Sequence record: MZ726794.1 | DNA: 39,917 nucleotides | Source of the DNA: Escherichia phage vB_EcoA_ASO2B | Direction: 5' to 3' (one strand) | In this document: piece by piece, positions 104 to 21,006 of the stretch | How positions within the stretch are numbered: position 1 is the first letter of the stretch | Layout: each line of letters starts with the position of its first letter | Notes under the pieces: generated by a model | What the model was told of the DNA's origin: nothing | Databases searched by the model: none | What the model saw: the letters and a program-made list of their open reading frames with translations, nothing else | Translations under genes and position numbers: made by a program

Positions 104-217
104 GTCCTACACCTACAGTCTCACTAACCTACAGTCTCACTAACCTACAGTCTCACTAACCTACAGTCTCAACCATAAGACACCAACACCTACAGTCATA
201 GACCTACAGTTACTAGA
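104..217. repeat. Left short-repeat array (SRL-like), ~7 tandem units with core CCTACAG
   Basis: Seen directly: acctacagtctcacta repeated at 111-126, 127-142, 143-158, degenerate copies to ~217. Analogous to T7 CCTAAAG arrays adjacent to the terminal repeat (concatemer processing/packaging region). Confidence 0.7.
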
Positions 218-461: not shown

Positions 462-491
462 TTGACAAGAAGTATATAATTAAAGTATTAT
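462..491 (+). promoter_or_regulatory. Candidate host sigma70 early promoter (A2/A3-like)
   Basis: TTGACA (462-467), 18-bp spacer, TATTAT (486-491); followed by gcagtaagac, resembling the T7 A2 region. Inference. Confidence 0.35.
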
Positions 492-1119: not shown

Positions 1120-1650
1120 ATGGAACGTAACGCTAACGCATACTATGAGCTGCTGGCTGCAACCGTTGAGCTGTTCAATGAGCGTATTCAGTGCGACGAA
1201 ATAGCTGAAGGCGATGACTACAGTGATGCGCTGCATGAGGTCGTAGACGGTAATGTTCCGCATTATTACCACGAGATTTACACGGTGATGGCTGCTGATG
1301 GTATTGACAATGAGTTCGAAGACTCTGGGCTGATGCCTGAGACCAAGGACGTAACGCGTATACTACAAGCTCGCATCTATGAGGCACTGTATAACGATGT
1401 GTCTAATAGCTCTGAGGTGGTCTGGTTTGAGGCTGAAGAGGAAGACGAAAAGGCTGAAGAGGAAGACGAAAAGGCTGAATATTGGGTAGTTGACACTAGA
1501 ACAGGCGAGATAATTGAGGCAGCTGTATCACTTTGCGAGGCTATTGCATGTGCAAAAGAACTCTATGAGGAAGGTTTTCACATGCAAGTCGAAGACATCA
1601 ACGATAACGTAGTGTTCGATCCTGAGGCTGCTGAGGAGGACTGCGAGTGA
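1120..1650 (+). CDS. ocr: Ocr-like DNA-mimic anti-restriction protein (T7 gene 0.3 homolog), 176 aa with extended acidic C-terminus
   Basis: Translation contains [43 protein letters not shown], closely matching the T7 Ocr core ([43 protein letters not shown] as I recall it); strong SD gagagga; highly acidic. Confidence 0.85.
   Translation: [176 protein letters not shown]
1432..1479 (+). repeat. Perfect 21-bp tandem duplication (gctgaagaggaagacgaaaag x2 plus partial third) inside ocr
   Basis: Seen directly; encodes [16 protein letters not shown] in the acidic tail of Ocr. Confidence 0.85.
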
Positions 1651-1817
1651 TGGTAACTTATGGTCTCTGCCAGCACCACGTCACCAACGCCCGGCTTATG
1701 GTCAAGACCGGGAGATTAAACCACGAGGAGTCTATGCGTCTCTTGAAAGTGGTCTACAGGAGACGCAAGCGCATACACGACAGCCTACACGCTGAGGACA
1801 AGAAATATTTACCATAG
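1650..1817 (+). CDS. Possible small basic early protein (55 aa), start overlapping ocr stop (TGATG)
   Basis: ATG at 1650 overlaps the ocr TGA (1648-1650); ORF MVTYGLCQHHVTNARLMVKTGRLNHEESMRLLKVVYRRRKRIHDSLHAEDKKYLP ends at TAG 1815-1817; below the ORF-track size cutoff; occupies the gap before the next R-site. Confidence 0.25.
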   Translation: MVTYGLCQHHVTNARLMVKTGRLNHEESMRLLKVVYRRRKRIHDSLHAEDKKYLP

Positions 1818-1919: not shown

Positions 1920-2267
1920 ATGACTGCTAAAACTCGCAATGTATTCTCGGTAGCATTTAAACTCAACGTTGTTAACTACTACACCTCTCTGCCTGAGGGA
2001 GTTATGGATAGGGTGACTGAAACCGCCCAAAAGTTCGGGGTGGGAACGAGTTCGGTGAAGCGCTGGTTTACTCAGTATATCCGTGGTGAGCTTGCCATGG
2101 AAAACGCTATTGCGGTGAGTCGCCGGCCTTCTAAGGTAATAACAGGTGATATTTACCACCTTGCAGGAAAGGACTTCAAGTCCAAAGAGGAGGCGATACG
2201 CTATGCGGTTGAGCTTGCTGGTGGGCTGACTGTAAGCAAGATGACCACTGTATCGGTGGAAGTGTAA
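1920..2267 (+). CDS. Hypothetical early protein (115 aa) with probable N-terminal helix-turn-helix
   Basis: SD aagga 8 nt upstream; N-terminal segment VVNYYTSLPEGVMDRVTETAQKFGVGTSSVKRWFTQY resembles the HTH of IS3-family transposase N-termini (pattern recognition only). Confidence 0.5.
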   Translation: MTAKTRNVFSVAFKLNVVNYYTSLPEGVMDRVTETAQKFGVGTSSVKRWFTQYIRGELAMENAIAVSRRPSKVITGDIYHLAGKDFKSKEEAIRYAVELAGGLTVSKMTTVSVEV

Positions 2268-2997: not shown

Positions 2998-5679
2998 ATG
3001 AGCGTCATCTCTATTGATAAACACGACTTCTCTGATGTGTCGAACGCCATTGAGCCGTTTAACCTGCTGGCTGACCACTACGGGCAGGACCTTGCAGTCA
3101 AGCAGCTTCAGCTTGAGCATGAGGCATACACTGAAGGCGAGCGACGTTTCATCAAAAACCTTGAGCGACAGACTGAGCGCGGGGAACTGGCAGACAATCA
3201 GGTCGCCAAGCCTTTGATGCAGACTCTGGTTCCTAAGATTGCGCAAGCCGTCAGGGAGTGGTATGAAGGTCCAGACGGGAAGCTGTCAACCTCTCGTCCT
3301 AGCGTAGCGTTCACCATGTTAAGCACCGAAGAGAAGGCCGTCAAGGACCGCTCTCTGCGTATCCCTTGCGAGTCTGCTGCGGTCATCATACTGAAGGTCA
3401 TACTCTCCAAGCTGGTAAAGCCTGAAGGGATACCGATTACACCGATGGCCTCCGCGATAGGTCGCACACTTGAGGACGAAATCCGCTTCGGTCGCATCCG
3501 TGACAAAGAGAAAGAGCACTTCAAGAAGGCGATAGCTGATAACCTGAATAAGCGGGCCGGGGCGTCCTACAAGAAAGCCTACATGCAAGCGGTCGAGACA
3601 TCCATGCTGGAGCAAGGCCAACTGGAAGATGCGTGGGGAACTTGGAGTCCTACAGAGGCTGTCCACGTGGGCATCAAGATGCTTGAGATTGTCATCCAGT
3701 CAACACAACTGGTCGAGCTTAAGCGGTACGGTGCTGGCAATGCAGCGGCTGACGTAGAGATGGTCCACCTGTCAGACTTCTGGGTAAAGAAGATGGCACA
3801 ACGAGGATTCAGCCTTGCGGGTATAGCTCCAGTCTACCAGCCTTGCGTCGTTCCACCTAAGCCGTGGACTGGTGTCGTAGGTGGTGGGTACTGGGCCAAA
3901 GGTCGCAGACCGCTACCCCTGATTCGCTTAGGGTCTAAATCAGCGGTGGCACGTTATGAAGACGTATACATGCCTGAAGTCTATGACGCTGTGAATATCA
4001 TCCAGAATACACCTTGGAAAGTGAACAAGAAGGTACTGGACGTGGTGAACATGGTCGAGAAGTTGAACAAAACGCCTATTGATGACATCCCTCAGATGGA
4101 GCCACTGAAGCCTGAAGACTATGCGGGTGAGACTGAGGAGGAACTCAAGGCATGGAAGAAGGCTGCTGCTGGTATCTATCGCCGCGAGAAGGCCCGACAG
4201 TCGCGAAGATTGTCACTGAGCTTTATCGTTAACCAAGCGAACAAGTTCTCTCAGTTCAAGGCCATCTGGTTCCCGTACAACATGGACTGGCGTGGGCGCG
4301 TCTACGCTGTGCCGATGTTCAACCCTCAAGGTAACGACATGCAGAAAGGTCTCCTTACTCTGGCAGTCGGTAAGCCTATTGGTGCTGACGGTTTCAAATG
4401 GCTGAAGGTCCATGGTGCAAACTGCGCGGGTGTTGATAAAGTCACCTTCGAGGAGCGCATCAAGTGGGTGGAAGACAACCACGACAACATTATGGCTGCT
4501 GCTAAGGCACCTATGGATAGCATTGAGTGGTGGGGCAAGTTAGACTCTCCGTTCTGCTTCCTTGCGTTCTGCTTCGAGTATGCTGGTGTAATGCATCACG
4601 GATTGTCTTACTCCTGCTCATTACCGATAGCGTTCGATGGGTCATGCTCAGGGATTCAGCACTTTAGCGCGATGCTTCGTGATCACATAGGTGGACATGC
4701 AGTAAACCTAACGCCTTCCGGTAAGGTCCAAGACATCTACCGAATCGTGTCCGACCGCATTGAGGAAGAGCTTAAAGTCCTGCTGGTTAACGGCACAGAC
4801 AACGAGATGGTAACTCACGAGGACAAGAAAACTGGTGAGATTACCGAACGCCTCAAGCTGGGGACACGAGAGCTGGCCCGGCAGTGGCTGACTTACGGCA
4901 TGTCACGCAAGGTCACTAAGCGTTCAGTAATGACTCTGGCCTATGGGTCGAAAGAGTACGGCTTCGCAGACCAAGTTTATGAGGACATCGTGATGCCGGC
5001 GATTGACTCAGGGTCTGGCGCTATGTTCACCGAACCAAGCCAAGCGTCCCGCTTCATGGCTAAGATGATTTGGGAAGCTGTGAGCGTGACCGTAGTTGCT
5101 GCGGTTGACGCAATGAAGTGGCTTCAGGGTGCTGCCAAGCTGCTGGCTGCTGAAGTGAAGGACAAGAAGACTGGAGAAATCCTGAAGCCTTGCCTTCCGG
5201 TACACTGGGTAACACCTGATGGTTTCCCGGTCTGGCAGGAATACCGCAAGAAGGATACCACCCGTCTGAATCTGATGTTCTTAGGGTCATTCAACCTTCA
5301 ACCTACGGTCAACAAAGGCATGAAGAAAGAGTTGGACAAGCAAAAGCAGGAGTCAGGCATTAGCCCGAACTTCGTCCACTCACAAGATGGTAGCCACCTA
5401 CGCAAGACTGTAGTCCACACGCACCGCAAGTATGGCGTGATGTCCTTCGCAGTGATTCACGATAGCTTCGGGACCATCCCTGCTGACGCTGAGTATCTGT
5501 TCCGTGGTGTCCGTGAGACGATGGTCGAGACCTACCGCGATAACGATGTGCTGCTTGACTTCTACGAGCAGTTTGAATACCAGCTTCACGAGAGCCAGCG
5601 CGACAAGTTACCTGAGCTTCCGAAGAAAGGTAAACTGAATATCGAAGACATTCTGTCTTCAGACTTTGCATTCGCTTAA
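2998..5679 (+). CDS. Single-subunit DNA-dependent RNA polymerase (T7 gene 1 homolog), 893 aa
   Basis: Size and position as T7 RNAP (883 aa); C-terminus ...DFAFA as in T7; conserved segments e.g. RRPLPLIRLGSKS, FDGSCSGIQHFSAMLRD, HDSFGT. Confidence 0.97.
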   Translation: MSVISIDKHDFSDVSNAIEPFNLLADHYGQDLAVKQLQLEHEAYTEGERRFIKNLERQTERGELADNQVAKPLMQTLVPKIAQAVREWYEGPDGKLSTSRPSVAFTMLSTEEKAVKDRSLRIPCESAAVIILKVILSKLVKPEGIPITPMASAIGRTLEDEIRFGRIRDKEKEHFKKAIADNLNKRAGASYKKAYMQAVETSMLEQGQLEDAWGTWSPTEAVHVGIKMLEIVIQSTQLVELKRYGAGNAAADVEMVHLSDFWVKKMAQRGFSLAGIAPVYQPCVVPPKPWTGVVGGGYWAKGRRPLPLIRLGSKSAVARYEDVYMPEVYDAVNIIQNTPWKVNKKVLDVVNMVEKLNKTPIDDIPQMEPLKPEDYAGETEEELKAWKKAAAGIYRREKARQSRRLSLSFIVNQANKFSQFKAIWFPYNMDWRGRVYAVPMFNPQGNDMQKGLLTLAVGKPIGADGFKWLKVHGANCAGVDKVTFEERIKWVEDNHDNIMAAAKAPMDSIEWWGKLDSPFCFLAFCFEYAGVMHHGLSYSCSLPIAFDGSCSGIQHFSAMLRDHIGGHAVNLTPSGKVQDIYRIVSDRIEEELKVLLVNGTDNEMVTHEDKKTGEITERLKLGTRELARQWLTYGMSRKVTKRSVMTLAYGSKEYGFADQVYEDIVMPAIDSGSGAMFTEPSQASRFMAKMIWEAVSVTVVAAVDAMKWLQGAAKLLAAEVKDKKTGEILKPCLPVHWVTPDGFPVWQEYRKKDTTRLNLMFLGSFNLQPTVNKGMKKELDKQKQESGISPNFVHSQDGSHLRKTVVHTHRKYGVMSFAVIHDSFGTIPADAEYLFRGVRETMVETYRDNDVLLDFYEQFEYQLHESQRDKLPELPKKGKLNIEDILSSDFAFA

Positions 5680-20031: not shown

Positions 20032-20121
20032 ACACAACTTGAGTGAGTGAACGCATAGCCAGCCGTAACGGGAGGGCAGGTTGTTGTGTTTCCTATTAAC
20101 GACTTAAAGGAGAATGACTTA

Positions 20122-21006
20122 ATGTCTCAATCAGTTTATGCCGAGTTCGGCGTTAGCTCTAATGCAATCACTGGTTCCGTTGAGGACCTGAACGAACACC
20201 AGAAGTCTATGCTTGAACAGGACGTAGCTGTTCGTGATGGCGATGACGCTATTACCTTCAAGCAACTGGAAGCCGAAAACGAAGAGGCGACCGAAGAAGA
20301 CGAAAACGTCGAAGAGACTGAAGGTGAAGAAGACCACGAGTCAGATGACGAAGAGTCTGAGACAGATGGTGAGCAACCTGAGTTCGTAGAACTTGGTGAT
20401 GCACCTAAAGAGCTGACCGAAAGTGTCACCGCTCTGGATGAAAACGAAGCTGCATTTGACGACATGGTGTCTTCTGCTGTAGAAGCCGGCAAGGTCACTG
20501 CTGATGAAATTACCGCTATCAAGGCTGAATACGCCAAGGACGGTAAGCTGTCTGACGCATCCTACGCTAAGTTGCAGGAAGCAGGTTACACCAAGCGTTT
20601 CGTAGATTCGTTTGTCCGTGGTCAGGAAGCTCTGGCTGAACAGTATGCTGCTGGTGTGGTTCGCTACGCTGGCGGAGCTGAACAGTTTAATCGCATCCTG
20701 TCACACCTTGAGTCCAACGACCCATCAACTCGTGAAGCACTGGAAGCTGCTATCGTTCGTAAGGACATTGCGACTACCAAAGCTCTGCTGAATCTGGCTG
20801 GCAAGACTCTGGGTAAAGCTGTGGGTGTTAAACCTCAGCGTACCATCACCACTCAGGCTAAACCTGTGGTCGCACCTAAGGCTCCTCAGACCGAAGCATT
20901 CAGCTCCAAGGCTGACATGATTAAGGCCATGAGTGACCCGCGATACCTGCGTGACGCTAAATACACTATGGAAGTTCGCGCTAAGGTAGCTGCCTCAAGC
21001 CTGTAG
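20122..21006 (+). CDS. Capsid scaffolding protein (T7 gene 9 homolog)
   Basis: Start at 20122 (SD aaggag); acidic middle region; C-terminal IKAMSDPRY as in T7 gp9. Confidence 0.9.
   Translation: MSQSVYAEFGVSSNAITGSVEDLNEHQKSMLEQDVAVRDGDDAITFKQLEAENEEATEEDENVEETEGEEDHESDDEESETDGEQPEFVELGDAPKELTESVTALDENEAAFDDMVSSAVEAGKVTADEITAIKAEYAKDGKLSDASYAKLQEAGYTKRFVDSFVRGQEALAEQYAAGVVRYAGGAEQFNRILSHLESNDPSTREALEAAIVRKDIATTKALLNLAGKTLGKAVGVKPQRTITTQAKPVVAPKAPQTEAFSSKADMIKAMSDPRYLRDAKYTMEVRAKVAASSL

Follow-up and report, generated by a model that had tools for sequence, protein, structure and literature searches.

Ocr, the product of gene 0.3 of phage T7, is a textbook DNA mimic that acts as a broad inhibitor of type I restriction-modification (R-M) and BREX systems and is also a trigger of back-up immunity, by PARIS and others. 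In Escherichia phage vB_EcoA_ASO2B (MZ726794.1; the complete stretch of 39,917 nucleotides analyzed here is called the window) the ocr gene encodes a protein of 176 amino acids (aa) compared with 117 in T7, and this raises the question of what the roughly 60 residues beyond the length of T7 Ocr are and what a perfect tandem duplication within them does. A first-pass annotation recognized the homology and the length correctly and took the additional residues for one very acidic tail. We favor, with moderate confidence, an interpretation in which a canonical Ocr DNA mimic holds an accessory binding module on a tether and the duplication is a near-neutral variant of this tether. The under-appreciated feature of this locus is a conserved domain without known relatives that is joined to Ocr throughout the genus Kayfunavirus, whose members include therapeutically used coliphages (K1F, LM33_P1, CLB_P1, Mt1B1_P3); the duplication matters little, being one of several variants in tether length.

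The Ocr core

Judged from its sequence, the N-terminal part of the protein is a well-supported member of the Ocr family, because it matches the Pfam family PF08684 "DNA mimic ocr" with residues 7-99 (E=2.4e-30, 105.4 bits at a cut-off of 25 bits), because the 176-aa protein matches PHROG 2568 "ocr-like anti-restriction" (E=3e-55) and, in phmmer, the solved T7 Ocr (1S7Z, E=1.3e-26), and because it possesses the acidic patch and is encoded at the corresponding position, upstream of a gene 0.4 homolog and of the phage RNA polymerase gene. The core is homologous to T7 Ocr (gp0.3; 1S7Z and complexes 2Y7C, 6R9B, 8Q56 and others) over residues 8-117, with 49% identity overall, and both proteins are encoded by the first early gene and contain the motifs PHYY, FEDSGLMP and ILQARIYE. 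The equivalents of the T7 Mut3/Mut12 patch are all acidic in ASO2B Ocr (D60, D63, E65, E67, D68, and E74), and for T7 Ocr it was shown that joint mutation of E59, D62, E64, E66, D67, and D73 (mature numbering) abolishes the activity (PMC3439906). In the AlphaFold2 model of the full-length monomer the core forms helices at residues 7-25, 35-59, and 75-93, as expected for Ocr, and the segment SNSSEVVWF replaces the distal third of T7 helix D. From the homology to T7, the core would be an early protein that most likely acts as a dimer filling the DNA-binding grooves of type I R-M methyltransferases and of the BREX methyltransferase PglX/BrxX, and the DNA-mimic mechanism toward both systems is expected to be common to the two proteins.

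Anatomy and distribution of the C-terminal extension

While T7 Ocr ends in a 14-residue acidic tail, ASO2B Ocr continues with a tether of 17 residues, a domain of 48 residues and a second short acidic tail. The same three parts were found in an alignment of 119 long homologs (162-179 aa), in which the conserved end of the core (...VVWF) is followed by the linker, a conserved block beginning with YWVVD and a short acidic tail, typically AAAEEDCE. In the AlphaFold2 model of the full protein the predicted local distance difference test score (pLDDT) is below 50 for residues 107-117 and rises to 85-89 for residues 121-170, with a predicted template modeling score (pTM) of 0.47, and the isolated residues 121-168 (hereafter the C-domain) are modeled with a pLDDT of 97.3 and a pTM of 0.78. 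The predicted topology encompasses β1 (122-125), β2 (131-133), a helix (138-150), β3 (155-158), and β4 (164-166). The models thus point to an extension composed of a disordered tether, a small globular domain, which makes up two thirds of the extension, and a short acidic tail, with the duplication lying wholly inside the linker and outside the folded domain. The flexible poly-Glu/Asp tether and the globular domain would replace the acidic tail that is dispensable in T7. An internal translation start for the C-domain was rejected, as the linker up to Y121 contains no in-frame ATG, GTG or TTG, and antisense open reading frames (ORFs; 1377-1496 and others) were rejected as genes because they are mirror images of the acidic codons.

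Over positions 1000-1900 the window shares 99.7% identity with Escherichia phage Mt1B1_P3 (MT496969, OZ035815), whose counterpart of the gene is annotated as "protein Ocr", and 84-94% identity with many phages of the genus Kayfunavirus (K1F, LM33_P1, SH3, and others), which places ASO2B in Kayfunavirus on nucleotide identity. The long Ocr proteins of this genus, K1F included, possess the same three-part architecture, and ASO2B Ocr contains each of the K1F-type elements, i.e., the acidic linker, the YWVVD... domain and the EEDCE-type tail. Using the C-domain as query, tblastn returned 71 phage records; those with a classification all belong to Kayfunavirus, and each match lies in an annotated feature that is read as Ocr or as a misnamed Ocr. 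The long form is present in 73 of the 572 phage records having an Ocr match, again all Kayfunavirus where classified, and furthermore in about 119 metagenome cluster representatives. The long architecture is the norm in the genus. In several public records (LM33_P1, IME177, ZH4, CY1, and others) the long ocr is mislabeled as "protein kinase" or "N4-like RNA polymerase", labels that were presumably carried over from neighboring T7 early genes.

When IMG/VR, JGI metagenomes and GTDB genomes were scanned with sequence patterns, the C-domain was retrieved only fused to Ocr, or not at all. A profile of the C-domain yielded three matches among 1.84 billion representative proteins, of which the two examined are repeat proteins and the third is a 2,680-aa protein with eight matched stretches; this search did not return the long Ocr clusters either, so that it can overlook domains in clusters whose representative is a short sequence. 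These clusters are probably represented by short Ocr sequences, and copies fused to other proteins could be hidden likewise. A single-sequence word-index search with the C-domain alone gave no candidates although the database contains over 100 long Ocr proteins, which reflects the limitation of this search with short queries and makes it uninformative. No match for the C-domain was found in Pfam, PHROGs and NCBIfam, the profile search against PDB sequences reached at best E 0.1, to unrelated proteins, no paralog was present in the six frames of the window, and full-text literature searches returned no description of the C-domain of long-form Ocr.

The tandem duplication as a variant of the tether

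The 21-bp unit gctgaagaggaagacgaaaag is present at 1432-1452 and, in frame, again at 1453-1473, with codons 105-111 and 112-118 each encoding AEEEDEK, in agreement with the first-pass annotation. Tandem Repeats Finder (TRF) reports the tract at 1430-1479 with a period of 21, 2.4 copies, 100% matches and a score of 100. The gp0.3 protein of K1F (169 aa) is 96% identical to ASO2B Ocr and contains one AEEEDEK unit instead of two, and exactly one 21-bp unit is missing in K1F and in SH3, which marks this as a true insertion/deletion polymorphism and not a chance likeness of acidic codons and is in line with the earlier assumption of an insertion of the slippage or unequal-crossover type. The duplication probably goes back to slippage during replication or to unequal crossing-over, in either case between repeats of acidic codons, and it extends the tether from the usual 10 to 17 residues.

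It was also considered whether the repeat is a product of assembly. Five contigs from four sources encode the identical 176-aa protein. Among them are the two records of Mt1B1_P3 and a pair of independent metagenome contigs from ENA, one of which differs in the downstream genes. The copies are distinguishable in both records of Mt1B1_P3, where the second one has the synonymous change A1464G (window position). The duplication is therefore not an assembly artifact, a possibility that the first-pass annotation had named for the extension. That the extension or the duplication goes back to misassembly or sequencing error, or that the C-terminal part has no function and is left over from a read-through fusion, is hardly credible: assemblers are error-prone on low-complexity acidic repeats, and in one metagenome relative (L028, 158-637) a 1-nucleotide (nt) frameshift lies inside the domain, but beside the recurrence of the protein and the non-identical copies in Mt1B1_P3 stands a domain that is conserved in 71 phage records, is under strong purifying selection and has a predicted fold with a pLDDT of 97.

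The length of the linker varies among the relatives, as had been supposed, from 3 to 21 aa; it is 10 aa in 94 of the 119 cluster representatives (79%) and 17 aa in three, including the protein of the window. An intact C-domain is present at all of these lengths, as expected of a tether. Hypervariability was not borne out, since the AEEEDEK copy number observed is either 1 or 2 and the many copy-number states of a contingency-type coding repeat are not seen. The suggestion of a recent event is only partly right: the metagenome relatives P0001 and P0007 possess 17-residue linkers with diverged halves (P0007: EPEESNEE-AVEEDEK-AE), so that the two-copy state either has become established as an allele of a small clade or arose more than once, and is not necessarily very recent.

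For the function of Ocr, the duplication is most likely neutral or nearly so with respect to anti-restriction. It was shown that T7 Ocr lacking the last 7 or 17 residues (Ocr109, Ocr99) is little affected in inhibition of EcoKI (PMC3439906), which makes it improbable that lengthening the tether alters the inhibition of type I enzymes, and the natural occurrence of linkers of 3-21 aa with an intact domain supports the same conclusion. In the cryo-electron microscopy complex of T7 Ocr, the tail residues E107, E111 and E116 form hydrogen bonds to BrxX (PMC11317158), and an effect of the tether on BREX is therefore possible.

The first-pass annotation had regarded the complete extension as a length-variable DNA-mimic surface. 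In this reading linker and domain form one elongated acidic surface that carries DNA mimicry beyond the 24-bp-equivalent Ocr dimer, with the copy number tuning or broadening the range of DNA-binding defense proteins that are inhibited. The extension is very acidic (net charge -24 for residues 104-176, with -10 in the linker, -9 in the C-domain and -5 in the tail), the K1F/Mt1B1_P3-type allele encodes the most acidic C-domain variant of the family, the linker is variable in length, and the contacts of the T7 tail glutamates with BrxX would fit as well. We nevertheless consider it quite improbable. The net charge of the C-domain, -9 in the window and in K1F-type alleles, has its mode at -4 in the family and ranges from 0 to -9, and this lack of conservation counts against a conserved DNA-like charge mimicry by the domain, which is predicted to be globular and is most conserved in a β-hairpin and not in a charge array. 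The linker is predicted to be disordered instead of forming a rigid phosphate-like lattice, one length predominates and no copy number other than 1 or 2 is seen, as described above, and inhibition of EcoKI survives the T7 tail deletions.

The 21-bp repeat itself is ordinary. A second acidic-codon tandem repeat was found at 20269-20323 (27 bp x2.0, 78% matches) inside ORF 20086-21006 (+), which encodes a protein of 306 aa, and it lies in the N-terminal, very acidic part of this protein; ocr is thus not alone in having slippage-prone Glu/Asp tracts. The only other array in the 39.9-kb window that scores as high as the ocr repeat is a perfect 16-bp x3.8 tandem repeat of ACCTACAGTCTCACTA at 111-171 near the left end, which outscores it and is possibly part of arrays adjoining the terminal repeat.

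Selection on the C-domain and its modular loss

The ratio of nonsynonymous to synonymous substitution rates (dN/dS) was calculated for 18 distinct genes according to Nei-Gojobori (Table 1). The C-domain is under purifying selection but changes at twice the rate of the core, and it combines, in the manner of a mosaic, a hairpin that is almost invariant with a helix face that is variable and fast-evolving.

Klebsiella phage Pkp-1 Ocr (114 aa, ...EAEESDEEDCE) and PE3-1 Ocr (110 aa) have a core that is about 93% identical and lack the C-domain. This clean loss with retention of the core indicates that the C-domain is modular. The Pkp-1 gene ends with GAC GAA GAG GAC TGC GAG TGA, in which the linker is joined to the tail, and as such a junction would result if the stretch between the GAGGA(A/G)GAC microrepeats on either side of the C-domain (Table 1) were deleted, these microrepeats are likely the end-points of an in-frame deletion in the short-form relatives. 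Two further early-region deletions affect the C-domain: in IMEP24 (562-1122) half of the C-domain is fused to a homolog of the window ORF 1920-2267 at a shared "AIA", and in P0112 a truncated C-domain is fused to the gp0.4 tail.

The modular loss, the faster evolution, the variable exposed helix and a likeness to small phage inhibitors (see below) are the reasons for favoring an additional protein-binding activity, and the C-domain would most likely be an accessory protein-binding module, one being held at either end of the Ocr dimer. The module could contribute a second anti-defense or host-directed activity or modulate the sensing of Ocr. Three points weigh against this account of a binding module on a near-neutral tether. 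The 10-aa linker in 79% of the representatives hints at some constraint on length, so that 17 aa may not be strictly neutral; by analogy to the T7 tail glutamates that bind BrxX (PMC11317158), the linker could itself contribute to binding; and the conserved and variable dN/dS partitions of the C-domain were picked after the conservation profile had been viewed.

The selection pattern also bears on whether the C-domain needs a target at all. It might act as a structural cap or stability element that, for example, shields the end of the last helix (now SNSS-VVWF), protects against proteolysis or promotes self-association. The invariant hairpin (dN/dS 0.017) could contact the conserved core intramolecularly, and the 3-residue linkers of CLB_P1 and P0009 would press the domain against the tip of the core. 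However, the short forms of Pkp-1 and PE3-1 show that the core does not need the domain, the full-length model docks it without confidence (pTM 0.47, linker pLDDT below 50), linkers of 17-21 residues are tolerated, and a fast-evolving exposed helix face (dN/dS 0.67) would be unusual for a purely structural cap, which makes this explanation unlikely.

Structural likenesses and possible targets

Structure comparison of the C-domain model gave scores of 6.0 for ClpS (40 residues, 1.1 Å), 5.0 for the T4 Dmd antitoxin (45 of 48 residues), 4.6 for the L7/L12 C-terminal domain (38 residues, 1.0 Å), and 4.0 for AcrIF9 (47 residues, 2.7 Å). Foldseek against the PDB returned no significant match (best E 1.4), with T7 Gp2, RB69 Dmd, and AcrIF9 at TM scores of about 0.43-0.45, and against BFVD it returned many uncharacterized stand-alone phage proteins of 45-88 aa (TM 0.6-0.78) with a best E of only 0.02. 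By this analogy the C-domain would represent a common minimal α/β scaffold as in many small phage inhibitors, which is not evidence of homology or function.

T4/RB69 Dmd, AcrIF9, and T7 Gp2 have a similar size and a two-layer fold of the β-β-α-β type, and they act by directly binding a host or defense protein, which serves as working analogy for the C-domain. In contrast to these free-standing proteins the C-domain is always fused to Ocr, and the comparison with the three revealed neither sequence similarity nor shared functional residues. ClpS and the C-terminal domain of ribosomal L7/L12 differ more strongly, since the C-domain has about half their size, 10-21% identity and no profile match, and, as inferred from the topology, two helices that help to form the N-degron pocket of ClpS are missing. 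A function as ClpS-like adaptor was set aside, because only the minimal sheet-plus-helix core matches, without a sequence signal.

A more specific proposal, which we put forward tentatively, is that the C-domain is a second, independent effector, making long Ocr a bifunctional counter-defense protein. The helix face would bind a defense or sensor protein of the PARIS, EcoR22I or Ronin type or, as Dmd does, an unrelated toxin, and the tether would leave the domain free to act even with the core bound inside a restriction or BREX complex. The Mt1B1_P3-type allele, with its longer tether, the most acidic domain, F54Y at a PARIS-escape position and Cys139, may then have been recently selected by such a system. 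Phe54 is located at the Ocr dimer interface and is conserved in 93% of the homologs; F54A breaks the dimer, and T7 Ocr F54V escapes PARIS and retains EcoKI inhibition (PMC9122126). Codon 54 (1279-1281) encodes Phe in T7 and in 118 of the 119 long-form representatives and Tyr in the window, a conservative substitution at a position that is not a defining residue of PF08684. Cys139 (1534-1536; Y139C) is unique to the window allele.

If the domain brings in a further target or changes how Ocr is sensed, long Ocr would be a compact natural fusion of two counter-defense functions, and the C-domain would also affect how Kayfunavirus phages fare against the defense repertoires of their hosts.

The locus and other features of the early region

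Table 1. Positions of the features of the ocr locus in the window, with dN/dS for the parts of the protein.
Feature	Position	Strand	dN/dS	Basis
Gene 0.3 (ocr), long Kayfunavirus form	1120..1650	+		ORF list; 176 codons and TGA, ATG start
Ocr DNA-mimic core, residues 1-103	1120..1428	+	0.17	PF08684, 1S7Z match, acidic patch, dN/dS
Acidic linker, residues 104-120 (17 aa), predicted disordered	1429..1479	+		pLDDT, charge -10
Perfect 2 x 21-bp tandem duplication	1432..1473	+		TRF; tract with partial third copy 1430-1479
Predicted C-terminal accessory domain, residues 121-168 (48 aa), β-β-α-β-β	1480..1623	+	0.36	AlphaFold2 of isolated block
β1 and β3-β4 hairpin, residues 121-125 and 157-168			0.017	
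β2, helix and loops, residues 126-156			0.67	
Acidic C-terminal tail EAAEEDCE (8 aa)	1624..1647	+		Translation; length 5-9 aa in nearly all relatives
Microrepeat GAGGAGGAC	1633..1641	+		Partners GAGGAAGAC at 1438-1446 and 1459-1467; flank the C-domain
T7 gp0.4 homolog, downstream gene	1650..1817	+		PF26807 Phage_T7_GP04 on identical neighbor gene (L010, L011)

In the window gene 0.3 is followed by the gp0.4 homolog, several small ORFs and the RNA polymerase gene (2998-5679). The ATG of the gp0.4 homolog overlaps the ocr stop codon (TGATG), and the K1F-type gene order likewise has a gp0.4-like gene overlapping the ocr stop. For T7 Gp0.4, a report from 2026 states that its complex with FtsZ activates the defense protein CapRel-Ebc (PMC13423816). 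Upstream of the early genes, a sigma-70-like site at 462-491 (+) agrees with the consensus in 11 of 12 positions (TTGACA, 18-nt spacer, TATTAT), and from this consensus match it is plausibly an early promoter for the host RNA polymerase.

The ORF at 1920-2267 (+) encodes a further early protein of 115 aa with sub-threshold matches to helix-turn-helix families, of which BrkDBD reached E=4e-4 and 20.6 bits, below the cut-off of 23.4 bits. Three related intergenic hairpins are present on the plus strand at 1040-1105, 1838-1900, and 2268-2330, with the common sequence GAGTGAT.AACTACAGGTC...GGCCTGA.TGAT. We see in them a likeness to the sites at which RNase III cuts between the early genes of T7. 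The hairpin at 1040-1105 folds at -24.1 kcal/mol (z -4.6), and the one at 1838-1900 is weaker (z -2.1).
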